From positions 26,908,001 through 26,972,000 of the forward strand of contig OX597818.1 in assembly GCA_951406725.2 (NCBI GenBank): DNA of 64,000 nt. The letters run 5' to 3'. The position numbers were made by a program, and so were the translations under genes. This stretch comes from Octopus vulgaris. Taxonomy: Eukaryota. Under the pieces are notes generated by a model. That model had not been told where the DNA came from. It saw only the letters and a list, made by a program, of their open reading frames with translations, and ran no database searches. Positions 3,848 to 48,200 of the stretch are shown here, piece by piece. Each line of letters begins with the position of its first letter. The stretch's first letter is position 1.

Positions 3848-3975
3848 CTCGGTAATTTCTGAAAGTGCCAACAACTTGATTATCCCGCCATTTAAACTGA
3901 ACTACAGACACAATGATTGGATAATATTTTGTGAAGTACAGAAATACGCATGCTCAGATCGTTCTGAGCATTTCG
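3848..3975 (-). promoter_or_regulatory. Putative promoter and non-coding first exon of the minus-strand gene
   Basis: CpG-retaining island ~2.8-4.5 kb; YY1-like AAATGGCG (plus CGCCATTT ~3886-3893); donor CGAG|GTATAT at 3847; short inverted repeat TGCTCAGA-tcgt-TCTGAGCA ~3951-3970. Confidence 0.4.
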
Positions 3976-4045
3976 TATACTTCCGATAGAAAATGTTAGA
4001 CTATCTTTGGTGATGCAAAGAGGAAGATAGAACTCAAAATATTGA

Positions 4046-4085
<40 letters not shown>

Positions 4086-24619: not shown

Positions 24620-25010
24620 AACTACAAGGGAGCCCCCATGATGTCACTCGAGCTGTAGGAAAAGCAGCCAAACCTCTAAATCACACCCTAAGATCTTAAA
24701 AAGAAGGTAAGACACATCAGATAACGTCATCATGGATATCACTAATTAAAACAAAATCCTCAGGGTTGAACGACCTAGATCTAAAGATGATCCCGAAGAT
24801 GTCTGGGTTTTTTTTGTATATACGAAAGAAATTGTAGAGTAAGCAAAATGGATACAGCAGCCAAATTTCCTTCAAATAAACATCCTACCATAAAATAAGT
24901 AAATAAACAAACAAAACGATGTCTTTCTTGAGATATATTACATCTAAAAGACAAGGTGAACCGTCTTTACCCATAAGTCTGCCTGTCCGGGATGACCTAA
25001 ACTAAACACA
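24620..25010 (+). repeat. Dispersed repeat family (AGCAGCCAAA...TCAAATCACACCC...GGATGGTCATGG)
   Basis: Related degenerate copies at ~1590-1720, 2500-2680 (-), 5730-5880, 32860-33010, 36870-37160 (-) and 47230-47420. Confidence 0.5.
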
Positions 25011-25188
25011 TTATACAAACTTAAGGTATATTTTAGAATTCTTAGATTGCAAATGCTTATGGCAAAATCACTCCGCACAAAATCCTATTTTTCGTTTCCC
25101 ATAAGACCAGTAACCTCGTTTCTAAGAGAGAACCAATAACTTAAGAGAATAAATATAACGAAACAAAAGAAATTTTTTTTCACACTCA

Positions 25189-25263
25189 TCACACAGAACG
25201 ATAGAGAGAGAGAAGCGGATATGACGTATCTGCATTTCCGGAATAGTTAACTTCTTACACGTG
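25189..25263 (+). promoter_or_regulatory. Promoter cassette A: ETS/CRE-like CGGATATGACGT, reverse ETS ATTTCCGG, E-box CACGTG
   Basis: CGGATATGACGT 25216-25227 and CACGTG 25258-25263; same order and spacing as the cassettes at 34674 and 37308. Confidence 0.65.
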
Positions 25264-25444
25264 CTGTTCCGAACTTGGTGTCCGAAGAAAATTTGCTAAA
25301 ATATAGCAATATATTTGTTAGCTGAGTGTTTTGTTTCTTTTAAAACCTCAGCATACCAATTTGTCTTCTTTGAAATATATAAATTCAGCTTATCAACGGA
25401 GAAAAACGAAACAAAAAAAAAAAATTGAGGATTATCAAAAAAGT

Positions 25445-25492
25445 ATGACAGCGAAGGTTAATGAAGATTCAAAAAAGAAAATAAAGAAAAAA
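25445..25492 (+). CDS. DDX21: Candidate alternative first coding exon A of the DDX21-like gene (MTAKVNEDSKKKIKKK)
   Basis: 16 codons then GTTGGT at phase 0; homologous to the exons at 34908 and 37506; purine at -3 (agtATG); no ATG between the E-box and this ATG. Confidence 0.55.
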
Positions 25493-26049
25493 GTTGGTAT
25501 TATTTTTTATATATAAATATATTTTAACGTTCCTTTGTTATCGAAAAATGTAATTGAACAACTTAAAACCGCTATTTTATTCAATGTACTAGTAATGAAA
25601 ATTCTAGAGAATTCATTTGGATTTAAGTATGTATAACTCTAGCGTGCGCCTTCTATCAATTTTTCTGTACCCACGAGGTTTCTGAAGACTGCACCGACTC
25701 AAGTTATCTTGAAGTGACGTTCGATTGCCTTCAATTTTTATTTAATAGTAAAAATATTTTTAGAACATATTATTTCTACGTGATTGATAATGAAAGCCTT
25801 ACATTTTCCTCCAAGGCCCTCTTGTACATGATACCGTTACTAATAAAATTATAACTTTGCATGAGGGCCGCGTTACTTTCATGGCTTCTGCACCAACAAA
25901 ATTCTTGCAGATGTGTTGGAGACAGCGTCTGATATCTAGTGCTTAGTGCGATAGTTCTCTTTAACTCTTTTATGAATATTTGACGACTTCTGCTTTCACT
26001 TTCTAATCCTAAAGCGAGAGAATATGAAACAAATATCCCTTCTCCATTA

Positions 26050-26273
26050 CGGTACTATTTAAGAAAAGTGGTCCCGGTGCGCGCTAACTAGTCGTGACTA
26101 GTCGATCTTCCAACGACCACATAGCAAAGTAAATAAAACAGGAAATAAATAATTTTTTTACACAAAGTAAATAAAACAAAAACACAGTGAGGATCGACTA
26201 GTCATGACTAGCGAGCGCGGATGCACGAGTACGTGAGTGCGCGCACCGGGACCACTCTTCTTAAATAGTACCC
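26050..26273. mobile_element. CpG-rich MITE, PIF/Harbinger (Tourist)-like
   Basis: TIR (G)GGTACTATTTAAGAA(A/G)AGTGGTCCCGGTGCGCGC at both ends, inner IR CTAGTC.TGACTAGTCGATC, flanked by TTA and TAA. Confidence 0.7.
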
Positions 26274-26276
26274 TAA

Positions 26277-27330
26277 TTCTATCGGTATCTTTTGCCGAAC
26301 CGCTAAGTTACGGGGACGTAAACACACCACCATCGGTTGTGAAGCGATGTTGGGGGGAGACAAACACAGACATAATATCTCTTTTCTCTTTTACTTGTTT
26401 CAGTCATTTGACTGCGGCCATGCTGGAGCATCGCCTTTTAATCAAGCAACTCGACCCTAGGACTTATTCTTTTGTAAGCCCAGTACTTATTCTATCGGTT
26501 TCTTTTGCCGATCCGCTAAGTAACGGGGACATAAACACCCCAGCATCGGTTGTCAAGCAATGCTAGGGGGACAAACACACACACGCATATATATATATAC
26601 GACGGGCTTCTTTCAGTTTCTGTCTACCAAATCCACTCACAAGGCTTTGGTCGGCCCGAGGCTATAGTAGAAGACACTTGCCCAAGGTGCCACGCAGTGG
26701 GACTGAACTCGGAACCATGTGGTTGGTAAACAAGCTACTTACCACAATATACACACAATTTTTCAAAGAAAAAAAAATATGTATAAATTTTTCCGGAATC
26801 GGATCCTTCACAACAAAAAACATGGGATTCCGTAAAAAAAAATCTATATATCCATTTTACCGGAAGTTTTGACCGAAAAATCAGATCTTGTGAATTTTCC
26901 GAAAGCCCCTCACCCCGGCTTGGTTTTTTTTTGTTCCCGGATGAAGGTTTTTATATTGACCCAAATGTCTTCTACTTATACCTTGGGACAATCAAAACCC
27001 TGTTACACGACGGCTTCTTTCAGTTTCCATCTACCAAATCCACTCACAAGGCCTTGGTTGGTTCGAGGCTATAGTACAAGACACTTGCTCAAGGTGCCAC
27101 ACAGTGGGACTGAACCTGGAACCATGTGGTTGGGAAGCAACCACAGTCATTCTTGGCCTTTGAGTCACAAAGCATGGATGTGTGGTTAAGATATTTGCTC
27201 CCCAACTATGTGGTATTGGGTTCAGTCCTATTGTATGGTACCTTGGGCAAATGTCGTCTACAGCCTCAGGTTAAGGAAATCCTTGCTAATGTGTTTGGTA
27301 GGTAGAAACTGAGAAACTCACTGCGTGTGT
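26277..27330 (-). mobile_element. Cluster of tRNA-derived SINE copies (26277-26375 -, 26380-26745 -, 27005-27170 -, 27170-27330 +)
   Basis: Reverse-complement and direct matches to the 33675 copy. Confidence 0.8.
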
Positions 27331-27561
27331 GTATGATTGGATGTGCTCAACATGCAAAAATTAAACCAATCAGGTTTTGGCTCTAGTATTAATCTTCTTT
27401 AGCTGTCTGATGATGTGTCTCTACTCACTATTTGGCCTCTATAGGGTGCATTTACTAGTCACATTGCTGAATACTGAAACATAAGTAACAGCTGGAAAAA
27501 CAAGTACCCAGTCAGTGCCCATGTTCATTCTTATTATTGCTGTGCTCTCCATTTCTCTATC

Positions 27562-27611
<50 letters not shown>

Positions 27612-28022
27612 TACACATGTTCTCATACTTTATTTAAAAATTCATCACTCACACATGCTTGCCCACAAATACACATCTCGAGTAACAACTTCCAAAACCT
27701 AAGCAAACAAATTCAACTCCAGATTTTTTTAAACTAACTTATATATATAAAAGGTATGGATTTTCTAAAAATAATAACCTACATATGGTAAGCGTTAAAT
27801 AAAGTTATCCAAATCCTGACTACTTTCGTTTTCTTAGTATATAAACTCTGTACTCCACTTCAGACAAGCTACATACACACACGTGTGTGTGTGTACTCTT
27901 GTCATACAAGTGAAGTTGTTCATTTATAGTCTTTCTTGAGAGTTGGCAACAAGAAGGCCAGCCAGCCATAGAAAACAAACCATGGGTTTTGTCTGGTCCA
28001 TGTAAGCATCATGATGTAGACA

Positions 28023-28586
28023 TTAACTCTTTAGCATTTAATCAGGCCATATCTTGCCCAAATATTCTACCTGTTTTATGCTAAACTGACCACATCCAAC
28101 CTCTCACACCTATCCTACAATGTCATTCTAAAAATATTCAAACACATCTTTAAAATTCTGAAGCCACAAGATAATTTATGATTAATTCAAAACAATGTGA
28201 ATAAATAAGCATTATATTTGATAGACTAATAGGCGCAGGAGTGGCTGTGTGGTAAGTAGCGGGTTCAGTCCCACTGCGTGGCACCTTGGGCAAGTGTCTT
28301 CTACTAAAGCCTTGGGCCGACTCACAAGCCCGTCATATATGTACATATATATATATATGTGTGTGTTTGTCCCCCTAGCATTGCTTGACAACCGATGCTG
28401 GTGTGTTTATGTCCCTGTCACTTAGCGGTTCGACAAAAGAGACCGATAGAATAAGTACTGGGCTTACAAAGAATAAGTCCCGGGGTTGAGTTGCTCGATT
28501 AAAGGTGGTGCTCCAGCATGGCTGCAGTCAAATGACTGAAACAAGTTAAAGAGTAAAGAGAGTAATCTGAATGTTAAAGGGTTTAA
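28023..28586. mobile_element. Short TTAA-flanked piggyBac-type MITE interrupted by a SINE (28232-28560)
   Basis: ttaactctttagcatt...aatgttaaagggtttaa; same family at 10338-10545 and 62097-62316. Confidence 0.6.
28232..28560 (+). mobile_element. tRNA-derived SINE (octopus-type family)
   Basis: GGCGCAGGAGTGGCTGTGTGG (A box), GGTTCAGTCCC (B box), internal (TA/TG)n, 3' GCTCCAGCATGG...GACTGAAACAAG. Confidence 0.85.
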
Positions 28587-29814
28587 GTGACATTGATGAT
28601 GGTTGTGGTCTTACTCAACTTTAAGTGGCAAAGGAACCAGCTAAACTTTTAAAAAATCTCACTCCAAACTGCAACCCTTTTGTTGAGAATTTTAGATAAA
28701 AATATTTCCAAGCTGTAGAGAAGGTATCTTGGAGCCAAATAATTCCCCAGGGTGAATGCAATTTCTGTTGTAGAATATCCAATTATCAAGTAGGAAAAGG
28801 CTTATAATAAGTTTAATCTCAATCTTAGCAAATCCAGTTGGAAAAGGCTTGTAATAAATCTGTCAACCTTTCAACTGTTTTACAGAGTTTGATGCTTATC
28901 AAGTTCCTTGTGTAGATGATTTGGTCAGTGGTGTATCCAAACTTAAATACTAATGATCTTTGTGGCCCCTATTATCAAGTTGGTATACTACCTGACAAAA
29001 GACAATATGCTCTTTCCAAACAGTTGGGTTCTTTACCTTTTTACTTGATTTCCTATATCACAAATGGTGTATCTGTGTTTTTGGTGAGTCATTAATAAAT
29101 TTATGAACAAAAATTTTCTTAGAAGTATCTATTCATGTTTAGCTTGTGGTGTAAAAAAGCATGATGCATTTCCAATTTCTTAAAAGCTAACGATCATGGT
29201 AATCTGACTGTAAACATAAAAAATGTAGATATGATCTAACCTCTATTAACTTCTTAAGGTATCTGATTTCATATGGAGAATCAAGTTATCATTATCACCG
29301 TTCCAGAATATTCAACTCTCAGGCTTTTGAAAAGCTATCTATACCTCAGAATATTGAATTACAATGGTTGCTTGGGTTCTTCATGTGTTACATACACAAC
29401 TCCAAATAGATCCTTTTCTGGTTTTGAAAATTGGGCCAGTGATGTAAATTTCATCCAGTCTGAGGATGATGTAAAAATGTATTAGTTCTAGTAAAGATCA
29501 TATAAAATGGCAGCTGTTATTGCTTTTGGTAACTGTTTGCCTTTCACTATTGAAACATACATTACCACCAGGTGATAGCTGTGTGGTGTTTTCATCCCCT
29601 ACCACATTGCTGAAATAAAAAAGCTTATGTAGTTATAAAATCATTTCTTTATGAAACAACTTAATAAAAACCATAGAAAAATAAGGATAAAAATCTTATA
29701 TTGGAGAAATTGAACTTTTCCCTCATACATGATAAACTATAGACCTAATTTAGAGAATCTTTGAGCTGTACTTTTGCTACTACTTCAGTATTTATGAATT
29801 TAGAATTACTACAT

Positions 29815-30830
29815 ATGGCTGGATGCCCTTCCTAATGCCAACCACTTTACAGTGTACTCAGAGTTTTATTGTAACGGGACAAGTGTTAGAAAGATTGCGT
29901 TGTCCTGTATAACTAAGGAGGCAAATTTGAGTGCGAGAGTGAAACAAAGAGACTATGATATGATGGATGGAACATAATGGGAGCAAGAAAGTGTTAGGCA
30001 AGTGAGTAATGAAACATAGTGATTGCTATATGTCACATGTTGGAAAGCAGACTGAGTAATGTGTGATGAAAGTGAGAAAGAGCGATTTATGTCAACATAG
30101 CAACAGAAGAGAGAGCGAGCGTGTATTTGAGTGAGAATCATAGCAAAAAGCCATGATGAAAGAGTAATTGCAATAGAGATAGGTGATGGTTATTAAAGAG
30201 TGACATGGAGAAGAATGAGGTAGCTAGTCATAGAGAAAGTTGATGATAGCGGATAATGAATATGGATAAATTGAAACCATCCCTCATTACATCAGGATGG
30301 AAAGGAGGTAATGTAAAAGGCGATGTTGTGGGGGTGAATAAAGAACATACGATACCATCCTTCATTATGTAGTGTGCTACAGTGGTTGGTGTCTTAACAG
30401 ATGTAAATAATCATCTCAACTTATATTTACCAATTTTAACATCTATTTGCAAAACTTGCATAGGTTTTCTCAAGTACTGTTGTATTGACTGTTATAATCA
30501 TCCACTTTCTTTGCAAAGTTCAGCTTTTTGAGATCAGTCTTCAAAATTTCATGTCGTTTTAAGTCTTTTTCACTTAGAACAACTACTACTTGATAAAACT
30601 GACATCCTCCATATGTGTCATACTCATATCGATGCAGTCTCTCTTGCACAGTACATCTGATTTCTCTTATATCCAGCTTTTCTCTAAATTCATTTGTGCT
30701 CTGTTGCTTAAGCACGCTACAATTACAAATTGAGTAGAGCTTATTTCTTTCTTTCTGCATTCAAAGTCCTCGCCGCACTACCATGCAGCATTGCACTTCA
30801 TACACAAACATAATACAATCTGCCAATTAC
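29815..30830 (-). mobile_element. Degenerate RTE LINE 3' part
   Basis: Tail motif GGATGCCCTTCCTAATGCCAACCAC at 29821; minus-strand REKLDIREIRCTVQERL remnant. Confidence 0.6.
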
Positions 30831-31258
30831 CCTAAAACAATTTTTTTGTTATCAGAATAACTCTGAACTCAATTACTTTTAACCCAGAATTTTTTCTCTA
30901 AAATTTGGGTAGATTCTTCTTAGATGGTTTATAACAGTGCCAATTAGGTAGACACTATTTTTAGCCTGGCACATATTTGTACCATTTGGGTTTTCTAATC
31001 TACCAGGCATGTAACATTGTATTTAGATGAAGTACCATGTATGTACCAGTTATATCAAAATATCGCAGTGAATCTTGCAAAAAAAGAAATATTTCAAATA
31101 TTAGGGAGTAAGATGAAGGTTGATTGAAAAACTGTGTTTGATTCCCAACAAAAAAAGTTCCTCTAACAGTTTTATAACACAACTGGTACAATCTTAGCTA
31201 TACAACAAACTACAATGGTACAAGTGTGTACCTATACAAAACCACAATAGTACAAGTG

Positions 31259-31483
31259 TCATCATCATCATCGTTTAACGTCCGGTTCGACCGGGGATCT
31301 GGGAAGCCAGAAGGCTGCACCAGGCTCCAGTCTTATCTGGCAATGTTTCTACAGCTGGATGCCCTTCCTAACGCCAACCACTCCGTGAGTGTAGTGGGTG
31401 CTTTTTACGTGCCACCTGCACAGGTGCCAGGCGAGGCTGGCAACGGCCACGGTCGGATTGGTGCATTTTACGTGCCACCGGCT
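31259..31483 (-). mobile_element. Young RTE tail insertion, near-identical to 51470-51701
   Basis: Direct sequence match to the reverse complement of the intron-6 LINE tail. Confidence 0.85.
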
Positions 31484-31859
31484 TGAGTGTGTACTACTCA
31501 AAATTATTTACTCTTAGAAATATGTATTGCAACAGTGTTGCAAGAATATTACTATCCAATGTTTATAAACTATGCATAATGTGTTTATGATAAGTTTACA
31601 GTGAAGAAAATGTTATTAATAGCTTACTAAAGCATGAGAACCAATAATAAACACTTAAGAGCTGTCTTTAATGGCGAGGGGTTTGTATGCATTCGATCCT
31701 TTTGAGCTGTCATTCACTCCAATCATATGTCTGGAGTGGTACTATACTGATTTACATAGAGTGGGAATTTTTAAGATTTGGGTTGTAAAATTTTTGACTG
31801 GTACATATATGTACCAGCTGAGCCGAAAGTGTTAAGGAGCCTTTTAAGCATTTCAAGAA

Positions 31860-32190
31860 ATTTGTTCTAATCTCTTATTGCTTACAGTATGCCTTCTCTG
31901 CCAGCCTGTGATCTGACTATGCCTCTTCATTTATAGAGTACGCCATATGGAGTTCTATGTACTCCTTTTCTACATATTGAGCATGACTATTTCCCTGATA
32001 GTAGCAAGGTCCTTTCTTCTTTTGTATAGAGTAAAATTTCAGTCTTTGCTAAGTTTACTTTGAGATCTCTTGAGTCTTGATTTTACTTCCATATCTGGAA
32101 TTTAAAAAAAATCTTCTGATTCAGCAAGGTCATCAGCATACTGAAATTTTCACAGCCAGCCAGTTTTAAATTCCTCTCTTATGGCTTGAA
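31860..32190 (-). mobile_element. Degenerate RTE RT fragment
   Basis: Minus-strand YADDLAE at ~32120-32141. Confidence 0.55.
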
Positions 32191-33674
32191 TCAATGTTTG
32201 TCATAGGTGTGTGTGTGTGTGTGTGTGGAGTGGTGCTATAGAGATAGAAAAAAGAAGCAGACAAAATACTACTTTTAAGGATTTTAAATTCCGAAGGACA
32301 AGTATCTAAAACGTTGGATTTTCACTCCTCACAACAATATCTGATCTTTATGGATTAACTTTAGTTGACGCAGACCCGTTTCTTTGGATCCCAGATCTTA
32401 CCCAATTAAGTCTATAGCTGATGTATGGACATCAGCTATATAGTCTTGCTGTGAAATGAAGCACACGAACCCATTTTTGGCTGCATGGGCTGAGTGTTGA
32501 GCGGATTGGTTTCATTGTTTGACAACTCAAGATTTGCTCATTTCGCTGTCCCAAAACAGTGATAGTAATTGAAGGCTACTTAGGACATTTTAAACATATG
32601 CTTAAGTGCAGTCTGACCACGTCCTATTAATTGGCACGTAGACAGCCTGACAGTAATTACTTAAGTGGGTTATGAATACATATACAGTTATAGGGTTATG
32701 GATAAAGTATATGTATTTGTTTCCGTATGTATTCTCAGTGCGCAATTAAACCAAAGAGGGGATTTTTTGGTAGCTTCGGATCACAAAACGAGTCAATTCG
32801 ATCTTCGCTACAAAACCCTTATAAAATGTCTTGGCCTTATATCGCAATGAAACTAAAATCGTATGGATGTGAGAAATAGAAGGAAAATTCTCCTTCGAAA
32901 TTACCTTAACATATCTAGAGAGAGATTTAAGAAATGTAAAAAAAGACGGGATGGTCATGGCTGGAATGTCTGTTTAGAAGTTTGCTCGATCATGACTATC
33001 CTGGTTCTAATCGTCTCCTTTTGAATACTTCCTAAGTGCGTGTTGTGACTGCGTTTTGTTATTGAAAGAAATTTACTACTAGACTGTCCTCTTCTATGTT
33101 ATTGTAATCCTATACCTTGTACTTAAATGTTTCTTTCACAATACTGTATGCAGGGTTATAAATAAATAAATACCCCCCCCCCCCCAAAAAAAAAACCGGA
33201 GTGGATTTTTACTGTGAAAATTTCGTTCATACTCTCACCCTTTTCTGTAGTCATACATTCTCAATGTATAAAACAAGTTTATAGAACATATTTGTTGGAA
33301 AAATATTGCGCTAACTGCCGGATTGTTCGAAAGAATGAATCCTCACGGGATTTGAATTTTAAAATGTAGTTGAGAGTTAACGAGAGGAACTTCTACGCAA
33401 TATGTTGAATATAGAAGTTACAGCTCCCTCAACTCTGTTTTAGGAAAAGAAAAACACAGTAGGTGGTCACAGCGGAACACCTTCACTCACAGGGCTGTCT
33501 GAACGGCTGATCTAAATAGAACAAGTAACTATATGGAGAATCATAAACTTTCTAGGTGAAATATTTCTTTTTCGGAACAGTGGATCTCGAAGCACAAATC
33601 TATAAATAACAGCATGCAAATATTGAGTTGAAAAAAGTGCTTGAGGATCCACTATTCCATAATAGAATAATAAA

Positions 33675-34066
33675 CGTAGGAGTGGCTGTGTGGTAAGTAG
33701 CTTGTTTACCGACATGGTCCCGGGTTCAGTCCCACTGCGTGGCACCTTGGGCAAGTGTCTTCTACTATAGCCTCGGGCCGACCAAAGCCTTGTGAGGGGA
33801 TTTGGTAGACGGAAACTGAAAGAAGCTCGTCGTATATGTGTATATAATATATATATATGTGTCTGTGTTTGTCCTCCCAACATCGCTTGACAACCAATGC
33901 TGGTGTGTTTACGTCCTCGTAATTTAGCGGTTCAGCAAAGAGATCGATAGAATAAGTACTAGGCTTTCCTAAGAATAAGTCCTGGGGTCAATTTGCTCGA
34001 CTAAAGGCGGTGCTCCAGCATGGCCACAGTCAAATGACTGAAACAAGTAAAAAAAAAAAAAAAAAA
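33675..34066 (+). mobile_element. tRNA-derived SINE, full length with A tail
   Basis: Same family as 28232. Confidence 0.88.
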
Positions 34067-34277
34067 GTGTTAATATGGGTGTTAATATATTGCTGACTTG
34101 AGGTATATTTTGCAATGTTTCCCCCATAAAGAAAGCTAAATTTCAATTATCATATGCTGAAAGTGTATTAATGAAAATACTGTCTGTCACACACATACAC
34201 ACCCACTCCATTCGCCTCTCTTAAGATCTGGGACCTTTGTGTCTGAGTCAGACCAATTTTGAGCAATAGTAAGAAAA

Positions 34278-34625
34278 TGCAGGTGTGGTTTTATGGTAAG
34301 GAGTTTGCTTCTTTACCACACGGTTCTAGGTTCAGTCCCACTACGTGGCACCATGGGCGAGTGTCTCCTTCTATAGCCACGGACCGACCAAAGTCTTGTG
34401 AATAGATTTAGAAACTGTAAGAAGCCCATTGTATGTGTGTGTAGTTTATGTTCGCGTTAATGTGTTTATTTCCCTCAGTTACAATAAAGACAATTTTACA
34501 AGTACCAGGCCAAAAAAAAAAAAAAATCCCCAGAATCGATTCCTTTGACTATAATAAATCTTCAAGGCGGTACCCTAGCATGGCCGCACCTCAGTGATAG
34601 AAATAAGTCTAAGATAAAGTAAAGT
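34278..34625 (+). mobile_element. tRNA-derived SINE, older copy immediately upstream of promoter cassette B
   Basis: Same family, diverged. Confidence 0.75.
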
Positions 34626-34648
34626 AAATGGAAAAGAATTTCCAATTG

Positions 34649-34721
34649 TCACACGGAATGATAATGAGGTAAACGGATATGACGTTTTCATATTTCCGGG
34701 TTTGCTAGAATTTTACACGTG
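34649..34721 (+). promoter_or_regulatory. Promoter cassette B: CGGATATGACGT, ATTTCCGG, CACGTG
   Basis: CGGATATGACGT 34674-34685 and CACGTG 34716-34721. Confidence 0.65.
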
Positions 34722-34907
34722 CTCTCGAACCTTGGTCAAGAAAACTTGCCAAACTATATTTGTTACTTTTAACAAATTTATATTTGTTAGCTGAGTGTTT
34801 TGTTTGTAAACCTCGCCGTACTTGTTTGTCTTGTGGGTAAATATATATACATAAGTTCAAAGAAGAAAACAGTAGAATTGAAGATTGTCGAAAAGTTGTT
34901 ACCTGGA

Positions 34908-34955
34908 ATGACTACGAAAATTAATGGAGATTCGAGAAAAAAGATGAAGAAAAAA
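34908..34955 (+). CDS. DDX21: Candidate alternative first coding exon B of the DDX21-like gene (MTTKINGDSRKKMKKK)
   Basis: 16 codons then GTTGGT at phase 0; leader shares TATATTTGTTAGCTGAGTGTTTTGTTT with copy A; ggaATG context. Confidence 0.55.
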
Positions 34956-36303
34956 GTTGGTATTATTTTTATTCACATAGAGGTTGTATTTTGATTTTGT
35001 TGTAGAAGGATTTTCACTTGTATAAACAACTTTACTTACCTTTATCTACTCTGCTCTCAGTTGTATATACTGAAACAATAAGCAAGTGGGATTTTCTGTT
35101 GAATTTTCAATCAATTCTTTGAATAGAGTGAGTGAGTTAATGTAAATTCAGTTGTTATTTAAAAAAAAAATTGTCCACTATATATCTGTATGTATATATA
35201 TATTACTTTTGTCTTCTGATCGGATTTTTAAATGTATACGTTTAAGAAATAAAGTCACGTGAAGTATCTGAAAGGATAATTTCTTTTATACTTAATCTCA
35301 TGTAAAATTTTGTAATTTATATTTATGATAATTTGTCAACAACGACGAAATAGAACATAACATTTTTTGAGGCGGTTTATCATTTGTACTTGAAGCTTTT
35401 TTAGTCATTGATCGATCGATGTCAAACCACAAGAATTATGACATACCTCGTCCAACTTTGTTTCCTCATAACTTTTAGAAAAATGGAGATTTTAATTTTT
35501 ACGATCTATATTGGCATTTACTACGCTTACCAAAAATCGGTCGTTTTAACCAATATAGTTGTGTGAAGTACGTGTGTGTGTGTGTGTATGTATGTATATA
35601 TATACATGTCAGTGAACAGGTCGCGGATTTTAGCGACGAAAATATTTTGACAAATTAAACTTAAATGTTGAAGTGAATCGAACGGCTTTTGTGTGTTTCT
35701 TAAATATCTTATAAACACCTTCCACGCTGCAATTGTGTATATTTATATATATATATATATATAAGCTACCTCCGCTATGATATGGAAGGGATCACATAGA
35801 AACTACTGTACAAAAATATAAAAGTAGATACTTTCTCCAAAACATCTAAAAATGTGCTGTTTTGTTTATCCCTGTAGAATATACCATAAACTGTAAATAA
35901 CAACTAAGTTCATTTAATCCTAGTAGTCACTTGTATAAAATAATGTAGCGTGTAGTTTCTATATTCACGTGCATATTCGACAACTAAACGTACGAGGAGT
36001 TTCTGTAGTAATCGTTGGAATCGAACCCGGAATCGCGTATTTGCGAAGTGAACTTTTTAACCACAGCCATGTTTACATCTCCACATAAATATTCTACAAT
36101 AATACAAGCTTAGACTTAGCCTTCCGAAGTGCATTTTCGGAAAAGGATAATCAACCTAATAAATATAGAATCTAAAATTGATATATACCAGTAATGTTGA
36201 GGAATCTAAGAGTAGATGCTTGTGCAAATGCGCTCCGCCCCTCCTGTCTTCAGTATTTCAGTGTCTGTAAAAGCTACAATATCGAATTGATGCTTGTATT
36301 TTG

Positions 36304-36664
36304 AGGTGGAGTTCTTGCATAATCGTAAGATTTTCTGAAAATTCCTAAAAAGAAAAATGGGGGCTAATGCAGTTTCGCACCTCTCCTTGAAAAATGCATT
36401 TTTTTGAAAAGTTGGGACAGGCAGAAGTCTTTCCATGTTGTATATTTAATTTACATTAAAATATTACTTACTGTTAATTAAGGTAAACAAAAGTAAAACG
36501 CAAATTCTTTTTCCTTTAATGTTTTTGTCTGTATTTAATTTCGATTTGCATGTCTAAAACGTAGGAATCCGAAAAAAAGTTTTTCAAAAAAATTCATTTT
36601 ACAAGATGCGAAACTGCATTAGCCTCAAAAAAATTTATGATGTACTTCGATCAGAACTCCACCT
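36304..36664. mobile_element. MITE with nested inverted repeats
   Basis: AGGTGGAGTTCT / AGAACTCCACCT termini and GGCTAATGCAGTTTCGCA / TGCGAAACTGCATTAGCC inner arms. Confidence 0.65.
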
Positions 36665-37282
36665 GTTATTTTTACCTTGTCGCGTATAATTCGAAAACTA
36701 TTTTGCTGCTATTTCTAAACCCGGTGAAGCAACCACGCCGATATCAACTTGGTAGTAATATAGTTTCGTGTGTTGTCCATTCCAAAATCAACCGTGATTG
36801 AGTGGTTCTATGACTAGTGGCTCTGAAGCCGTTCGTCTTTTTTCCCCCAAGTAGTATTTCCTCAGAACTGTGTTATCCAATACATCCATCCTTCTTCAGA
36901 CGGTAAGATGCGACTTAAAAGATATTTGGCTGGTATTTCTAGCAGGCTGTAAGAAAGGGGTGACGTTTCGAACAGTTCTTCTTTGAAGGGATAGCTTAGC
37001 TCATCATTAAGCAGACATGATGATTTAAGGTATTACAGTCGTGACCACCTCGTCTTTTTTATTGGTATGTTTAGGACTACTATATTAATATGATGTGTCC
37101 TTTATGTGATGAGACTTGTGTGGCTTGAGGAAGATTTGGATGCTGTGTCTAGCGACCACAGAAGAAAAATTAACTTGCTCATTGATTGCCGAAACGATGG
37201 TTTATATTAGATGCGAGCCACAAAGTGGAACGTGGTGAAATTAATTTCAATTAGTAGTTAAAATTATATAAGAGCTAACGTG

Positions 37283-37355
37283 TCACATGGAAGGAAAGCA
37301 AGTTGAACGGATGTGACGTTTTCATATTTCCTGAGGCGTCAGCTTCCCACACGTG
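37283..37355 (+). promoter_or_regulatory. Promoter cassette C: CGGATGTGACGT, ATTTCCTG, CACGTG
   Basis: CGGATGTGACGT 37308-37319 and CACGTG 37350-37355; the surrounding DNA retains CpG. Confidence 0.7.
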
Positions 37356-37505
37356 CTTATCTGATTTGGGTACGCGAACCAAGTTCAGTGACGTGTTTAG
37401 TCGAGTTTATTTATTTGAAATTCTCGGCATTACCAGCTATTTCTGAATATTGTAAAATCGAATTCTCAAAGGCGGGAGAAGATTGAAAATCGTTAAATCA
37501 AAAGG

Positions 37506-37553
37506 ATGACTGCGAAATCTAGTGATGATCCGAAAGAGAAACTCAAGAAAAAC
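37506..37553 (+). CDS. DDX21: Proximal first coding exon C ([16 protein letters not shown])
   Basis: 16 codons then GTCAGT donor at phase 0, in frame with the exon starting at 43193; aggATG context. Confidence 0.7.
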
Positions 37554-39162
37554 GTCAGTTTTGTTTTAATCTTTTAAATATTGTATCGAGTGTTTCACTC
37601 ACCCCATTTTCAAATATATATTTCACTTATATTTAGTATGAAAGAGATACCAGGTTTCAATCACTAAAAAAAAAAAAAAATTTTTAAGAATGAAAATATA
37701 ACGAAGATTTTTAACATATATGCAAGTCTTTGTGGAGCTCTCTTACGTTAATAATCCGGTTTAAAATCCATTTATGTATTTATTATAATCATAAACGAAT
37801 ATTAAATTTTAAAAAATTCAATTTAGATGTTTCTATTATTCCAAGTCTGTTTTGTCCTTGATTAAATATATTTTGATGGAAGATATGGACACGTGCACAG
37901 AAACAATATCATTTTAAATTTATGGCATTCTTTTCCGATTTCCAGCTTAAGTGATTTTTCTGTCGTAACCATTCGCTTTGTGCATATTACGATTTTGTAC
38001 TGTCGCAAGTAGAATATATATATATCCAGAATTGATAACCACTTGTTCACATGTATACATCCACACAGGTATCACAGATATATTTGACACACTTATTACG
38101 TTAGCAATGTGAAAAATTTCCCGACTGTTTTATAGCGATCGAGTCACACTCGGGCGCACGCGTGAATTCTCAATGCGATTGGAAGACTAATTTTGTTTAT
38201 ATCCTTGTCCGGACACACATTAAAATTGAATATATTCGCGCCCATTTGTCAATTGCGTTCATCTAATAATGGATTAATTTACATTTATTGTTTGATAATT
38301 AAAGAATACCTTAACTCTATCGTTGGATATATAAAGCATGGCAACTTTTAAAGTAAGTAATTATTATACATCAACTTAAGATTATTTTTCAGATCTGTAT
38401 AAGAAAATAAACGCGATTCCGTTCGTTGATTATGAACTTCCTAATATGACATATGCCTCCAGCTTGTATATGTAATTACGGTTTCTTGATTGACTTATTA
38501 ACTTAGGTTTGGACATTTAGGTGAACTGTACTTTATTTTCTGGCTTAGTGTTGTACGTATCTAGTAGCATTCGGTCAGTGACCACTTGGTCACCAGTGTG
38601 CGGCGAAATTTTCGGCTCCTTGCTATTAAGAAATATTCGAAATAAGTTTCTATGTTCTTAAATTTGTTAAAATGACTGGCTCTTCCATAATATAATTATT
38701 TCGTTACTCATTGTGTCAGATCAAGTCACTCGCCAAACGAGTACAATTACGAAATATTTTCAGTTATATTTTAATACAGTAACGTTTAACAAAATACAAT
38801 TTTGATCTAAAAGGCAATTTGAGGTCTGAAAAACTAGTTTAATTTTATTTTGTAATTAATTTCATTTGGGGGTTTTCATCTCAAGCTCAGCATTTTTAAT
38901 GCTTATTAAGATTGTTATTTTAAGCTCGTTACGAACGTGTCGTTATTGGTTGCATTTTAGTATCTAACAGAATACTTGTAACTTAGGAAGTGCTGCTAAC
39001 TGGGTCATGGCTGATGGTTTGTTTAGCTCTAGTTTGTCGTGCTGGTAAAAACGTGAAAGCTTTTCGTTAATCAATACGAACGTTGCTTTTACTCACATTA
39101 ACTTTATATCGATTGTATTATACTTTTTACTCTGTTGCATATTATATGTATGTGTATGTATG

Positions 39163-39216
<54 letters not shown>

Positions 39217-42200
39217 CACACACATTTCGCAGAGAAACTGAACATTCACGGAGATAAGCTATAATGAATATCTATATTTATAAATTTGTAAAGTACATCG
39301 AGAACCCCCTGCTCTCTATCTCGTTAGAAAACCACACACATACATACATACAAAAGCATGGGGCGATATTATAATTCTAACTTCAGGAAAAGAAAAGTGC
39401 TTTCACCTCAGTCCACTAATTGAAACTTATATGAATTCCAATTTGATAATATTACTTAATAGTATATCCATGATCGATTAGTTTATGGGCATATGTTAAA
39501 GATAAATTTTTATTTTTCATGTCATGTTCCGTTGCATGACCAACAACACATATTTATCTATTTTCCCTTTTACTGCTTAAAAAATAAATTTCAGTGCTAT
39601 CTTGGTCGACTGTCGTTCGTCCATCCCTTTTCCGCCATTACTGCAACTAAGTCGCCCGTTCCTCTCAGTCTATGATATTCAGAATATGAAGTGCATAACG
39701 TTTATTCACTGTTTTACTTAGAATTCATGTCTGTAGTTATCTCCAGTAACTTTATTCAATATTAAAGATATCTTCGATTCCTGTAATCTATTCAAATCAA
39801 GTTTCCTCCTTCATTGTACTAGACACGTGGATGTCTACAGAAATGCACTTTTAAAAATAGTTTCTTTGTTGCAAACGATATATAAATGCTGTACTTTGTC
39901 AAATGGTAGTATTGGCACAGTGCCAAATATAATGTACTATTATAATATTTCAAGTTTCCAAGATATCGTCCTTAATTTTTTCTTTTAATTTGGTTGGATT
40001 TAAAATAACGTAGCATATATATATATATATATATTGTATTTTGGAATACAATTTCTTAGGAAATTCAATCTCAATTTCTGTTGATAGATCAATTTTCGAT
40101 TATTGTTATTATACAGTAATGTAAAATCTGCAATGTCTATCTTCTAACGGTTATTTTCTCGTAAAATAAAATTTGCAATGTTTATCTTCTAACAATTATT
40201 TTCTTTTGATATCCGACTGCTACGACCTCAGTATTAGTAGCTATTTAAGATATTTGTAATTTTGGAAATTAGATTGTAATCGTTATTAGAAATAGCTCCA
40301 ACTATATAGGCGCAGGAGTAGCTGTGTGCTGGGCTCAGTCCCACTGCATGGCACCTTGGGCAAGTGTCTTCTAATATAGCCTCGGGCCGACCAAAGCCTT
40401 GTGAGTGGATTTGGTAGACGAAAACTGCAAGAAGCCCGTCGTGTATGTATGTGTGTGTGTATATATCTATCTATCTATATATATATATATAGTTTTCGCC
40501 ATGATAGATCGCTAGCCACTATACATTCTTTATTTTCTCTCCGTTTCTTTGTGTTCCTTTCTGTGGAAGAGCGTAGGCTCGAAACGTTAGACTTTTTCGC
40601 TTCTCGAGGGTTAAACTGATACATCTTTTTGTTGTCTACACCACCTATCTTCGTCTTTCTTTGTGTGAATTCTCCCCATATATATATATGTATATGTGTG
40701 TGTGTGTGTGTCTTTGTGTTTGTGTCCCCCTCCATCGCTTCACAACCGATGTTGTGTTTACGTCCCCGTAAATTAGCAGTTCGGCAAAAGAATCCGATAG
40801 AATAAGTACTAGGCTTACAAAGAATAAGTCCAGGTGTCGATTTGTTCGACTAAAGGCGGTGCCCCAGCATGGCCGCAGTCAAATGGCTGAAACAAATAAA
40901 AGAATAAAAATATATTTTAAGATTGTGGTATTAAGTCTAATCCCGTGTTTCATTGGTTTTATTGATTTCATTTGAGAAGTTTTAAAATTATATAACATAC
41001 ATTGCCATGCAATTCAGAAGTTTTCATACTACATGGTTCCGGAATCGATTCTATTGTGCGGCGCCTAGTGCAAGTGTTATCTGTAACTTTGACTTGAGTA
41101 AGGCTTTGATAAATTTGGTAGTGAATTTCGAAACCATATTATTGCATCGGTTTGTCTATATTGCTGTAAAATGGTGCGTCGAATTACGTCCCTTCCGATA
41201 ATCAGATCGGTAAAATATGTACTGGGTCGATATGATTGACTAAGACCTGTGAAAGCGGTGCCCAAGCATGGCTGCAGGCCTGTGGCAACCCAACCAATAG
41301 AATACTTAACTTCTCTATAATAAATAGTACGTTACTTTTTGATATTTACAATGTCTTTTTAGTTTATACTTTTAATGAAAATTATTCCTTTAAATAAAAA
41401 GTAATTTTACCTTGTAAGGAGTAACTAAACAAAAAGTTTTGCTATTGAACCACCACCTAAATAGTGTCAATTAAAATAGTTTGCAACAATTTATTTTAAT
41501 GGTACTTGAATATAGTAATTATTAACTGTAAGTTTTCACTAGATCATTTAAATTAACTTATCTTGTGTTGGAAAGCGATTTCATTTATCAATATAGAATA
41601 TTGCGGAATTTTACATGGTTTTAGTTTTTACATGCTGCATTTTAATTCTGTATTAGTTAAGGAATGGGATGGATTCATTTAGCCCTTTTGTTACTGCTTG
41701 AACTCATTTTGAAAATAAAGAATTTGGTAGGATTTAGTAAAATGATCTTACCCTTTTAATACCAACCAGCTCAGTTTAAAGGTATGTTTTTAATCAAAAC
41801 TGCCTTTCATGATTTTGTTGATTATAAACACTGGCTTTTAAAATTAGTTGAAAAGTATTCAGTTAGCCAAAAAGTTCAGTTTTTGTTGGCACTAAACTCC
41901 AAGCACTCTAATGAGTAGCTAACTTCAGTCTGTCCCTTGTGCATTAGCTACTTGACACTTAAACACAGTTTGCAGACTTGCTGCTATGAGAAAGGTTGCA
42001 TTTTTGTGTGCTTGGGATTACCCTGAAAATGGAAAACTAAACTGTTTTATTTTAAAAAAGGCAAGAAAGTGGCAGAAACCTGCAGGATGATATGTACTGT
42101 ATATGGAGAGGATGTTCTTATGGAATGTGTGTGCCAGAAATAGTTATCAAGTTTTTTGGTTCCAGATGCACCTTGTAGCTGAGATTAACAGCAGCATTAA

Positions 42201-45200
42201 TCCCCATTATACAACCAGGATATCCAAATTGAGTGTTGTAAACCATCTACATCAACTTAGGTCAGCAGGCTCAGTCTTTGGGTCTCTCACATCGAACGAG
42301 ACTGACCTCACGCAGCAGATTTCAGTCTGATTCGTTACAGAAATGTAAAGAAAACGTTCTTTTTTTTTTTGAGGAGAATGGTGGTCGGAGATGCAAAAAG
42401 AGTCATCTGTAACAATGTGAAATGCAAACAAATTATAGGGGAAGTGTGTTGAATCACCACAAACAACCGTCAGAGCAAAATTTCATTTGAAGTTTGTATT
42501 TTCAATTTGGGATTGGAAAAATGTCTTGCACGAGCTTTTCATGGACAGGACTATCAGTTTAGATGTGTGCTGTGACCAGCTGAACAAATTAAATGGAGTG
42601 ATTCACCAAAAGCTTCCAGCACTTGCTAATTATAAGGCAACTGTCTTTCATCACCACAGGTGTGGTAGAAGTTACTGGGGCTTCACTAGGTTTTGCCACA
42701 CCCTAAACATTGGCCCAAAATTGAACCTTGAGATTTTCACCTGGATGTGTTTTTTTACTGTAAAGACGGAAAATAATAGATCTGCCCACAAGATGGCAGA
42801 AGATACTGGAATGAAACAGTAATTATATCATTGACTAAATAAATCACTTTGTGTTTAAAACTGGTTTTATTTTCCCATAAAAAAGCTGAATGGACTTTTT
42901 GACCAATTCAGTACTTAATTAGAAATATGATAAAAAGTTAGCATACAAGTATTTTTGACTAAGTTGAATGAGACAAAGTAGATCAGTCTTCGGGTTGTAA
43001 TTTTTTGTCATTTTAGGTAAGACTAAAATATGCTGAAAATACTTTTGTATATCTTCAAGTAAATCAATTTGCCAGTTTCATCCTTTCCCAAGCCATATCA
43101 AGAGAAATTAAATACACAATCAGATAGCATTTTGTTTGAACACTTGTTTCTTCATTAGAAAATTTCAGTTTTCTTTCTTTTTTTACTGACAGGAAAACAA
43201 AACCAATATGAATGGAAATGCGTCTAGTGCATCTGATAGTGACAAAGTTGATCCCCAGGTGGAAATTGGTGCTTTTGGCAATTTCCGTATTTCTGACACC
43301 TCTATTCAAAAATTGAAAGGTATTGTTTTTTCTTTCTTCAGCTAAAACTCTTTTTTATTGTACTAATTTTCTCTGCTAATAAAGTCAATATGACAATTTC
43401 AATTCTGATAGTATATATTCAAATAAATATTTCCCCTAAAACTTGATTGGTTCAGTAAGTTGAATTTATGTTGGTATAGTATATAGAATAGATGGAATGT
43501 ATTGTATATATATATTCTATTAAGATTTTTATCTCTCTGTATGCAGGGCTTACGCAATGTATTTAATTCCTGCTCCCCTTTCTATTTATTTTATTTACTT
43601 ACAAGATATACTCAGTCTTCAACAGTTGACCATTTCATAGTTTCTTCTCTTCAAAACATAGCTATACACAGTGCTGTATAAATGTGAAATATAAATAGTT
43701 AAAATTGTGTAATCAGAACTAACCTGATTCAATAGGTATGCAATTTGGACCAAAGATCTGTTGAGTCAGTTAATGTGGAATATATGAGAATAAAGAGAAA
43801 AAATCCACTAGTATGGCATCTAATATAAACTGAATTGTGCATGTGAAGTAATATGAAGTGCTAACTAGTCAAAACCAACCATGGTTCACATGAAATTGTC
43901 AGAAGGCAGATTCATCGATACAAGAACTCATGCTTGCTGTCAGTAATAGCTAGGATCATGTCACTGTATTACAAAAGAGAAAACCAGATACATTGCTTTC
44001 CTGTTGCAAATCAGATATGTGTTACTACATCTTGCCATAAGTTCATCCATAAATTACATTCTTCACTTACGGCTACCATTATGGGCTTATATTTCATTAA
44101 TGACTGGCTATAAAGATTGTTGTACTGTACAGTTTACCATATAAAGACTTTGTGAGGTCTGTTATCCTTACAACTTTTCACTTTAGTTGCTGTTATTTTA
44201 GTCAGTGTAATACTGAAGACCAGCATTGATATGCATTATCTAAATTATTTAAATTAATCTTTCATATTTCAGCACTGTTTCATTATCTTATTGTCATTTA
44301 ATTTTTTGCAGCCAATGATATCAATTATCTTTTTCCAATTCAATCACAAACTTTTGATTATGTCTATGATGGCCACGATGTTATTGCTCAAGCACGTAAG
44401 TCCTGTTCCCTTCAGTTCTTTATGGTGTTGGTTTCATAATGCAATCTATGTTTTTGTCTATTGCTTAACCCTTTCGTTACTATATTTCTGACCAAAATAC
44501 ACCCCTTATGTGTTTCAATTAATTTCTAACATAATCATAAATTTAGTCTAGTTTCATTAAACAACTATAACTTTTTTATTTAGCAATATATTAATGTGAT
44601 TTTTGGAAGATAATTTAATGAAATGTTCTCAACCAATTCTATACTATAATTTTTGTCACAAAGTGACTCTAATTGCAGGTAGATACAGGTAAATTCAACA
44701 AAATATAAAATTATTAAAATTTTGTTCAAACATTGCTATAGAAAATGGGTTATTAGCTAATATTCAATTGGGTATACAACAAAATTTTACGATAGAATTT
44801 GTTATTCTGGGTAACTTTCTGATACCCATAATAATATTTATGGCAAAATAGTCTTAATTTCATTTAAGGTTGTGGGAAACCACAAACTATCCCTTCTTTC
44901 GCTTTGTTTGCATTTAGCGTAACGGTTCATTTCTGCCGTAATGATTTCAAATAGGCTCATTCGAAAAAGTAAAAAGAAATAGTCTAAGACTTTACTCTCC
45001 TGGGAAAGTCTGTGGCTTGGTCCAGTTTCTTCAGAAAAATCACCGAAAGAAACAGTATTAAATTTTCACTCCATTCAGGTGCCAATTCATTTTCTTTATC
45101 GCTGTCGGAGCTCTCTGATTCACTGTTTTCACTTTCGGAAAATGAAACATCAGATTCATTATCAAATACCACGTGCTTTTTTTTTTTTCAGTCATAGAGT

Positions 45201-48200
45201 TAGATTTATCAAGGTCTTCAGTAGAAAAGCCTTCGAATTCTGACTCGCTGCTTGATATAATGAAATTCGTATCCATTTTTTGTCAGAATTACAAATTTTG
45301 AAAACGCAATAGGAACAAATTTTGGGAAAAAATCTCCCAAAATTCACGGAATTAAAATTACACTTCGATCTTTGTACAAAACTGTAGATGAACTGTTTAC
45401 AAAGTATAATCACGTGTTTTCACGAATGTACTAAAGAGATTTGCTCTGATATTCTCATTTAAATATGAATAGGTAAATACGGGTGGGTTTGGTCACATTA
45501 ACCAAAATTTTTTTGGGCGGTTTGGTAACGAAAGGGTTAATCAAAGAAGTGCAGCACTTGTGACCCTTATCAGGTCCTTTGAAACTTGTGGAAGTGAGTT
45601 ATCCTCATATCAGAGACCCGGTTTTGAATGGTTGGAATAAAATATATTTCACTAAAGGCTGCTAATGACCAGTTGAAGGTGTTGTGCTACATGATAAAGT
45701 CTACCCCCCAAGAACAGTAATGGTCCTCCAGTGGGCTTCCACGCAGTTTTATCAACCAAATTCCACGAATAAGGCTAAGATTGAATCACGGCTACTTGCC
45801 CAAGATGCCAAAACACCATGTCTGCATTCATGCCTGTTGTAAACAGTAATATAATTTCACTATGTAAACACTTACTACACATTACCTCACAATCTTATGG
45901 AAATGTTCTCTAGATTTTATGGTAGTCCTTCTATTTAAACCTTAGTATTTTTACAGTGCTTTATCCTTTTTTGAAAAGAGTGCCAAATTTAGAAATTCAA
46001 ATATTCCAGATAACTCTGGAGGCTAATTGCTTTGCAAAATATAAACAAAGGAATAAGGAAGACAAATAATGAATTTGCAAATGTTAGTGTAAAATCCAGC
46101 ATTCTTCCTTTTTCCCATTAATATATTGTTTCTAGCTTACTGACCTACATGTGATTTTTTTTTAAAGCCACTTGTTTCATACTCTATAAAGATAATTGTT
46201 TTATATGCCAATAAAACCTGTCTAGGTAAGGAAGGAAGATTATAAGGCCAGATAAATGTTTTGGCTATACACAGACATTTCAAAAGTAAATAGGCACCAT
46301 TTTTGAAAGATTTATTTCTAGAAATCAAATAATATCAAGTGATGTGTTGAAATACCTAATCTAGTATTTAGTAGACATGCTTTGTCCAGTTTTTAATGAT
46401 TTAAACTGTTTGGGGATCTTACTCATGAGTAGGAGTGTCTGCTGCACACACGAAACAGTATAATGAGGAGTGTCTGAGGTGCCTGTGTATATCCTAGGCA
46501 ACCTCACAAAGTGTGTATGTCAAGTTATGTGGAGTTGTTTTATATGCTATCGAGTTCAATTGAAAATCCAATCCCTGCACGGTTCTTTCATGTCAGATAT
46601 TACAATTCTGTCATTTGTTCCAGTTGAATTTTGATTAAAATTTGTATTTCATAGTGATATTTAAACAAAAGTATAAATATTACATTCACCTGTATTTACC
46701 TGTAATTAGAATCCTGAATCATAAAATCCACCATAAATTTAAGTATCTTTTGCTAAGTTGATCCAAGCACCACCTTTAAATGTTGATAAACAAAAATGTT
46801 AATTCACGATTATTTTAGTATTTACTAATATACTTGAAAGTTTAAACAAAAAACACTGAATTATTTATTACATTCTTTGTCATCTGTTTCTTTGTAATTT
46901 ATTTTAACATTTTTCTGTCTTCAGGAACTGGCACTGGAAAAACAGTAAGTTTGCTCATTTGATGATTTCTTTGATTTTCATTCATTCATAACTGTGAATG
47001 AAAATTGTTGGTATATTTTGACTTTTGCATCTACACTTACAAAGTTAAGAAAACCACTTTTCATTCAAAAAAGTTACTTGGACCATCTTCATCCACATTA
47101 AAGTTTAGATAGAAGTGAATGACTTAAAATGATTTTGGTGTGTGTTACAGAATGACTGAAGGTGAAAGTAATTGTTTATTAGTTATATGGTCTTTGGAGG
47201 TAAATCTATTGAGATTAATGGATCAACCATGTCTGAACCTAATAATCCTCCACTAAATCTACCTCCATTATAGACATTCTTACATACAACTTTATTTAAA
47301 AGAGGAAGAACATATTGGATGATATAGTACATTGCTTGAAAAAAAGATGTCATATCATGACAGGAATTCTTTTCAGCACTAAACCTGCTTAATCAGTGCT
47401 GAACTGAGACTAAACATTCTTGTTCATGGGAGAAATGGTATTACTACTATTTAAATGTCCTTTAACTTAACTCTTTTGAGTGACGCAAAAGCGGTGGTTT
47501 GTGGAAAGATTATGATTTATTTATATTTTGAATGTAACTTCTCAACCATTGTTAATGGAATTTATATAGGTGTTGTTTAGAAAACAAATTTTAAGTATTC
47601 CTCTTATTTAATCAGCAACATTATATTAAAATTTTGTTTAGGGACAGTTAAACAAATTGTACCTTAATTATCTCTTTATAAATAGATGTTAACTGCTTTG
47701 TTTTATTTCAGCTTTCCTTTGTTTTGCCACTGGTAGAAAAACTGATTAAAAAAAAGAAAACAAAAGAAGGTCGAATGCCTAGGGTAAGAAAATAATTATG
47801 CTTTATGACACACCTCTGTAATAATTCTACATAATTCTTACGTTTTCAAAACTACCTAAGATTTCTGTTTGTATTTAAATCAAAATATTGATGAGAATCA
47901 TGATATTACATTAGTGATAACAGAATTTCATTTTGTAAACAAGCTGTAAACTATTGCCAGTTGTTTAGGATTTTTTGATAGTTTCCCCTCATCATTCCTA
48001 ACGCCAACCACTTCACAGAATGTACTGAATGCTTTTTAAGTGGCACCAACATGAGCACTTTTATGTGGTACTAGCATGGGTGCTTCTATGTGGCACCAGC
48101 ACGAGTACTTTTTCTGTGACACCAGCATGAGTACTTTTTCTGTGACACCAGCATGTACTAAGCCCCCAGGACAAGGACCCCTTTTTGAGAATAGGACGTA

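Follow-up and report, generated by a model that had tools for sequence, protein, structure and literature searches.

Results

A DDX21 gene behind duplicated start modules

The stretch of DNA analysed here (the window) comprises 64,000 nucleotides (nt) of the Octopus vulgaris genome (GenBank assembly GCA_951406725.2, contig OX597818.1, positions 26,908,001 to 26,972,000 of the forward strand) and contains a gene for a helicase of the DDX21/DDX50 family. In front of the shared gene body lie three homologous modules, termed cassettes A, B, and C, each composed of a block of promoter-type motifs, a leader, and a first exon of 16 codons, together with an unrelated fourth first exon, D (Table 1). 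An annotation made previously from the letters of this DNA, referred to as the sequence-only reading, had described the three cassettes as promoter and first-exon units feeding a single helicase body. Motifs and peptides were recovered at the positions it gave. Pairwise local alignment scores were 221 for A and B, 117 for A and C, and 90 for B and C, none of which was reached by any of 200 dinucleotide shuffles (z = 39, 22, and 16), and the three cassettes are thus true paralogues.

Common to all three copies are the motifs CGGAT(A/G)TGACGT, resembling a composite of an ETS site and a cyclic AMP response element (CRE), ATTTCC(G/T)G, a reverse ETS site, and the E-box CACGTG. As claimed in the sequence-only reading, the start of the CGG and the start of CACGTG are 42 nt apart in each copy, and every first exon has 16 codons, a purine at position -3 of its ATG, and a phase-0 GT donor that leads in frame into the exon at 43193. 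The E-box precedes the ATG by 181 nt in A, 186 nt in B, and 150 nt in C. Every reading frame and every donor has stayed intact, although the leaders are just 51-65% alike. A second GT lying 4 nt downstream of the donor in A and B (GTATTA) was rejected as an alternative donor; it would shift the frame, and transcript contigs stop at the first donor. The description of the leaders as free of ATG stood below the E-box and failed above it, where the ETS-CRE-like motif itself contains an ATG (25221, 34679, and 37311) and where contigs already start ahead of the motif block. This ATG opens a frame of nine codons with an aligned stop in A and B and is directly followed by a stop in C; such frames matter only if transcription begins above the motif. 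A further block, TTAG(C/T)(T/C)GAG, is kept in all three leaders (25313-25330, 34781-34798, and ~37396-37410), and the contigs show no splicing there.

The homology between cassettes spans just ~350 nt. Beyond it, flanking sequences scored at chance in five of six comparisons, which rules out a longer duplicated block; the upstream flanks of A and B scored weakly (z 3.6, reached by none of 100 shuffles), possibly owing to a shared repeat. No copy of exon 2 or exon 3 was found between the cassettes (best other match E=0.03, over 28 nt) and the helicase-C exon has a single close match, in agreement with the proposal that promoter and first exon alone were duplicated. A profile search with A, B, and C detected no fourth copy in the window (next match E=1.9), and a genome-wide DNA search with A, an insensitive one that recovered only A and B, detected none elsewhere. 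The motif trio occurs three times in the 2.8-Gb genome, each time at the DDX21 locus, as opposed to zero occurrences of the control; since there are only three genomic copies, we ruled out a transposon-borne cassette. Small elements with terminal inverted repeats, similar to miniature inverted-repeat transposable elements, lie just past cassette A (26046-26277) and between B and C (~36360-36625).

Exon D sits 0.8 kb past cassette C. It is not detectably homologous to any of the three cassettes (z ~0), and no remnant of it was found after A or B. The presence of this unrelated exon raises the number of first exons to at least four, so that the sequence-only reading was right about A, B, and C and missed D. 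In addition, a contig of the gene body from sequencing run X24 starts three letters before exon 2 (43191-43193; AG after one unmatched letter). Together with RefSeq isoform X5 and the extension of a CpG-rich domain to 41.5 kb, this contig start may point to a further first exon, the fifth, without coding sequence.

The shared body comprises 13 GT-AG exons that encode 625 codons and a stop, with no internal stop codon, and 615 of its 625 residues are identical to those of Octopus bimaculoides nucleolar RNA helicase 2. In this orthologue, Pfam identified DEAD (4.5e-45), Helicase_C (1.2e-32), and GUCT (8.7e-22) domains, the first of them beginning at residue 67; among individual exons of the window, Helicase_C was matched and GUCT remained slightly below the cut-off. 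With a DEAD and Helicase_C core and a GUCT domain, the predicted protein is a member of the DDX21/DDX50 helicases. The helicase-C exon gave four matches in the genome, one representing the DDX21 locus and the other three being at most 51% identical. Having only one close match, DDX21 appears to be single-copy in the octopus genome.

Table 1. Features of the DDX21 start region and gene body (positions in the window)
Feature	Position	Strand	Evidence or remark
Cassette A: TCACA block, ETS-CRE-like 12-mer 25216, reverse ETS 25234, E-box 25258, leader, first exon	25189..25498	+	motifs, RefSeq X1, contigs
Cassette A 16-codon first exon, donor GTTGGT	25445-25492	+	in frame with exon 43193
Cassette B: ETS-CRE-like 12-mer 34674, reverse ETS 34692, E-box 34716	34649..34961	+	motifs, RefSeq X2, contigs
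Cassette B 16-codon first exon, donor GTTGGT	34908-34955	+	in frame with exon 43193
Cassette C: ETS-CRE-like 12-mer 37308, reverse ETS 37326, E-box 37350	37283..37559	+	motifs, RefSeq X3, splice joint
Cassette C 16-codon first exon, donor GTCAGT	37506-37553	+	in frame with exon 43193
First exon D, coding part, MATFK, donor GTAAGT	38338..38352	+	RefSeq X4; contig 37924-38352 (run X23) ends at donor
Exon 2, first shared exon, phase-0 acceptor TGACAG	43193..43319	+	sequence, RefSeq isoforms, transcript contigs
Shared DDX21/DDX50-family body	43193..59490	+	O. bimaculoides identity, Pfam on orthologue, single close genomic copy
CpG-rich domain over cassette A, observed/expected 1.04, flanks 0.18 and 0.33	24500..27000	.	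CpG count
CpG-rich domain over B, C, and D, observed/expected 1.02, just downstream 0.24	32500..41500	.	CpG count

Isoforms and transcript contigs

Five RefSeq isoforms of O. bimaculoides DDX21 belong to a protein cluster of six members. The N-termini of isoforms X1 and X2 are identical to the A and B peptides, respectively, at 16 of 16 residues. Isoform X3 starts with a C-type peptide of 15 residues, which has one substitution and one residue fewer than that of the window, isoform X4 starts with MATFK of exon D, and isoform X5 starts at an in-frame methionine within exon 2.

Twenty-four public runs were listed, all as contigs; none of them was registered as RNA or carried a tissue label. The sequence of cassette A was present in 20 of these runs, from nine studies. 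Contigs of four runs, X1, X23, X7, and X24, representing two studies and two organisms, were compared with positions 24500-44450, two runs having been chosen because they hold cassette A and two because they lack it. All four contained the joint of exon 2 and exon 3, and therefore contain spliced RNA. A GT..AG joint from 37553 to 43193, linking C to exon 2, was present in two of the four (X1 and X23). Contigs stopped exactly at the donor of A (25492) in runs X1 and X7, with overhangs of 20 and 21 letters, and at the donor of B (34955) in runs X1, X23, and X7, with an overhang of 21 letters in X7; at the donor of D, the contig from run X23 carried an overhang of 30 letters. The A and B first exons have their last 9 bases in common, and an overhang of 21 letters is predicted if both join exon 2, given an assumed 31-mer assembly graph. 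Joining of each variable exon to the constant exons is thus displayed directly for C and is indicated for A and B by the contig ends at the donors, the overhangs of 20-21 letters, and RefSeq isoforms X1 and X2. With the CpG-rich domains, these observations support the sequence-only reading of a variable-first-exon, constant-body gene.

The contigs start above the motif blocks, at 25100 for A, 34565 for B, and 36572 for C, and at 37924 for D. Among the cassette differences listed, two lay in the TCACA block; the 48-nt exons and the three core motifs were free of them. Run X23 gave no cover of cassette A despite a body contig deeper than that of run X1, and run X24 gave no first-exon contig for A or B. 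We did not use either as evidence of tissue specificity, because these runs were chosen for lacking A and because contigs drop rare variants.

Promoter character of the cassettes

Cassette A lies in a CpG-rich domain of its own, and B, C, and D share a second one. The flanks, the DNA between the two domains, and the gene body have observed/expected ratios of 0.18-0.33. We read the two domains as unmethylated promoter DNA within a methylated genome. By its CpG content, the DNA around all four first exons is promoter-like, and together with the motifs it supports a candidate transcription start for each variable exon.

Within the motif blocks, 35 of 40 alignment columns are identical in A, B, and C, as opposed to 10 of 37 in the spacers and 58 of 196 in the leaders; the significance of blocks over spacers (Fisher p 6e-8) is overstated, because the blocks were chosen after inspection. 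The ETS-CRE 11-mer CGGAAGTGACG is described, in the accessible part of PMC3464117, as bound by GABPa and CREB and enriched in promoters of mRNA-processing genes. Cassette C differs from it at one of 11 positions, A and B at two. The degenerate ETS-CRE-like 12-mer occurs 646 times in the genome versus ~142 expected (~4.5-fold) and its reversed control 847 times versus 931, the expectations deriving from a rough model whose training sequence was the window. Eleven of 12 sites sampled (the first 12 of the 646) were CpG-rich, which suggests that octopus promoters in general make use of this putative composite element.

An excerpt of PMC2570694 reports that, throughout Holozoa, ribosome-biogenesis genes are marked by CACGTG close to the start. 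In A, B, and C the E-box lies within the 500 bp before the ATG that define this class, making each a putative Myc target; the flanks, ACACGTGC, agree with the fly consensus MAACACGTGYG at the adjacent bases only.

N-terminal peptides and evolutionary history

The peptides carry net charges of +6 (B), +5 (A), and +2 (C), and D has one lysine. In pairwise comparison, 5-9 of 16 residues are not shared among A, B, and C. In a 14-protein cluster to which Sepia pharaonis DDX21 belongs, seven members have this same 16-residue start, six of them alike and one with a single residue changed and a body exactly matching another member; the deviating start is possibly an allele or a second cassette. Two other, unrelated starts were found in four members of this cluster (P0128, P0131, P0130, and P0135) at the same exon-2 boundary, the remaining three being fragments. 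Judged from these cuttlefish proteins, alternative first exons of DDX21 exist in decapodiforms too. One Argonauta gene model has a single version of the peptide, which is 3 residues away from A, B, and the cuttlefish peptide and 6 away from C. The single cuttlefish and Argonauta versions both have a net charge of +6, most of which is lost in C.

Occurrence of the peptide in cuttlefish and Argonauta implies that the module was ancestral in coleoids and that alternative starts are older than the duplications, and isoforms X1-X3 of O. bimaculoides place the triplication before the split from this species. Based on these protein comparisons only, the triplication is probably confined to octopods. 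C is the outlier of the three, A and B resembling each other more closely, which indicates that C split off first or evolves faster.

Among coral proteins (P0140-P0143, P0147, P0018, and P0023), two N-terminal forms of DDX21 were also seen in Montipora, one lysine-rich, the other arginine-rich and acid-poor. The arginine-rich form, which is kept in other corals, resembles by impression a mitochondrial presequence.

Other features of the window

Introns 3 and 9 of DDX21 hold two elements of 1.1-1.4 kb in opposite orientation (44465-45545 and 53812-55177), which are 94-96% identical and have terminal inverted repeats with TTAA on either side; we take them to be piggyBac-like. Base pairing of the two copies within the pre-mRNA could create a substrate for editing. 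An exon-like frame on the minus strand (1211-1453), giving no Pfam match, and a CpG-rich patch upstream of that frame (3000-4500) represent a neighbouring gene. A search of the window for Rfam families returned no match.

Discussion

Retention of the duplicated starts

We favour, with some confidence, the reading that DDX21 of O. vulgaris has three diverged promoter-like modules with 16-codon first exons and an unrelated fourth exon, that C is spliced to the body and the others likely are, and that the copies have been kept since each contributes a share of the output in certain cells or under certain conditions. Each copy has retained its motif cores and its frame, so transcription is likely able to start at any of the four places. 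The locus would have arisen in the octopod line, where two partial tandem duplications copied the start module of the ancestral coleoid gene and left out the body, and the flanks of the duplications would since have diverged past recognition. ETS, CREB/ATF, and Myc/Max-type factors may drive each copy through the conserved cores, and transcription from any of them would join the donor of the cap-proximal exon to 43193, the diverged spacers and leaders setting differences in level, timing, or translation. The N-terminal tags might be mostly interchangeable, control of dose and context being the main product of duplication.

Several points weigh against this reading. Among the matches listed, the joints of A, B, and D to exon 2 are absent, so that the junctions predicted by the sequence-only reading were seen for C, while for A and B contigs do end at the donors. 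No overhang is present on the B contigs of runs X1 and X23, and the overhang at D is 30 letters versus the 27 predicted given the B joint. In run X23, the C contig reaches ~0.9 kb above its motifs. Peptide identity to O. bimaculoides says little about constraint, given that identity of the body is 98.4% as well. Finally, the near-identity of the core motifs among the copies fits redundancy as well as the separate tuning of promoters that the sequence-only reading had proposed.

Redundant ('shadow') promoters of this kind, firing at a fixed ratio, contributing to dose or robustness only, and kept by drift and mild selection, seem to us an unlikely explanation. The nearly invariant cores and 42-nt spacing, as well as the fact that runs X1, X23, and X7 each contain two or three of the first exons, are what redundancy would lead one to expect, but spacers and leaders have strongly diverged, cassette A occupies its own CpG domain 9 kb upstream with CpG-poor DNA in between, and the sequence upstream of D is unrelated. 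Still more doubtful is a diversification of the protein, in which promoter choice would swap N-terminal tags of graded charge and thereby tune nuclear import or nucleolar partitioning. The difference at 5-9 of 16 residues among A, B, and C exceeds that between Argonauta and cuttlefish (3 of 16), and C lacks most of the net charge of +6 kept by these two; yet relaxed constraint would also account for accelerated change following duplication, and the C peptide is not the same in the two Octopus species. All isoforms moreover share a C-terminal RGG tail and the basic motif PKKRFR, presumably an import signal. Human DDX21 deprived of its N-terminal 185 residues retains ~87% of its unwinding activity, according to the available part of PMC7721647. 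A human N-terminus that is nearly dispensable and a basic C-terminal tail common to the isoforms both point to a regulatory gain from the duplication, towards which we lean.

It is quite improbable that only the upstream promoter or promoters are strong and that the downstream cassettes serve partly as internal or extended exons, for which sDscam offers a precedent in the accessible text of PMC4835542. The C and D contigs, which reach 0.4-0.9 kb upstream, and the TTAG-like block kept in the three leaders would suit such use; no cassette-to-cassette joint appeared among the matches listed, the contigs run unbroken through the TTAG block, and each copy has the full motif set. A view of A and B as dead relics, or as artefacts of the assembly, is very hard to maintain. 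Their joints are not directly displayed and their GTTGGT donors match the consensus modestly, but independent RefSeq models exist in O. bimaculoides, contigs ending at the donors come from two organisms, the frames are intact, the context is CpG-rich, and cassette A recurs across nine studies; this alternative is largely refuted. None of the outcomes that the sequence-only reading had named as contrary to it (dead relics, splicing to unrelated exons, or an artefact of assembly) was seen.

Returning to the reading of copies that each supply part of the output, it is tempting, if rather speculative, to go further and imagine a miniature protocadherin-style locus, in which tissue, stage, or temperature picks one of four starts, thus setting DDX21 dose and tag charge and tuning nucleolar output in a fast-growing animal; we think this unlikely in so specific a form. 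Duplicated start modules may also form a wider class in cephalopod genomes, of which DDX21 would be one example.

Tandem first exons that are homologous, each with a promoter of its own, have been described mainly for genes of recognition and detoxification, in which specificity resides in the variable exon. The same layout on a single-copy housekeeping gene, varying almost only the regulatory part, makes the locus a clean natural experiment on the reasons for retaining duplicated promoters, be it for dose, robustness, or division of labour. Moreover, the three diverged copies amount to an intrinsic footprint of the promoter of an octopus growth gene, with ETS-CRE and ETS sites and an E-box at fixed spacing, which is useful for the study of cephalopod gene regulation and for reporter design.

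Comparison with known systems

The DDX21 isoforms already exist, uncommented, in automatic annotation. We found no description of duplicated promoters or first exons of octopus DDX21 in the literature covered, nor one of tandemly duplicated alternative first exons in cephalopods or anything relevant on N-terminal localisation signals of DDX21, most subscription papers and supplements lying outside this coverage.

Variable-first-exon clusters of vertebrates, as described in the accessible part of PMC1885805, comprise PCDH, UGT1, UGT2A, and GCNT2. Like octopus DDX21, they combine tandem homologous first exons behind a conserved promoter motif with shared constant exons and lineage-specific tandem expansion, and GCNT2, with three variable exons, is the closest in number. 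In the octopus, A, B, and C, not D, are tandem homologous first exons, and the conserved motif sits at a fixed place. In the vertebrate clusters, the variable exon is large and encodes, according to the same excerpt, an ectodomain or a substrate-binding or catalytic domain, whereas the octopus exon encodes 16 residues outside every Pfam domain and no folded specificity domain. For this reason, the octopus locus works like such clusters and is not classed among them; the analogy to PCDH and UGT1A drawn in the sequence-only reading applies to the layout and not to the variable part, a tag of unstructured type. Further differences are the housekeeping nature of the helicase, the admixture of a non-homologous first exon, and the occurrence in a mollusc.

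The chelicerate sDscam genes likewise show, in an invertebrate, 5' segmental duplication of a promoter and first exon or exons before a constant region, but their cassettes, as far as the excerpted account goes (PMC4835542), consist of 2-4 exons encoding Ig domains, number up to 13 per gene, and serve recognition diversity. Ordinary genes with alternative first exons also combine several starts with one body, and exon D and the cuttlefish alternatives are of this kind. Such exons are mostly unrelated in sequence, the portion of the human survey at hand naming only PCDH, UGT1, GCNT2, and UGT2A as having highly similar ones, whereas A, B, and C are paralogous. With the DDX21/DDX50 helicases (nucleolar RNA helicase II/Gu) and the Myc E-box regulon, in so far as the available parts of PMC7721647 and PMC2570694 describe them, the octopus gene shares DEAD, Helicase_C, and GUCT domains, an RG-rich tail, and a CACGTG at most 200 nt before the ATG; it differs from DDX21 of other molluscs by a much shorter N-terminal region and from the regulon by the threefold presence of the E-box promoter. 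Taken together, the octopus DDX21 start modules constitute a genuine regulatory variant, small in scale and to our knowledge undescribed, of an architecture already known.

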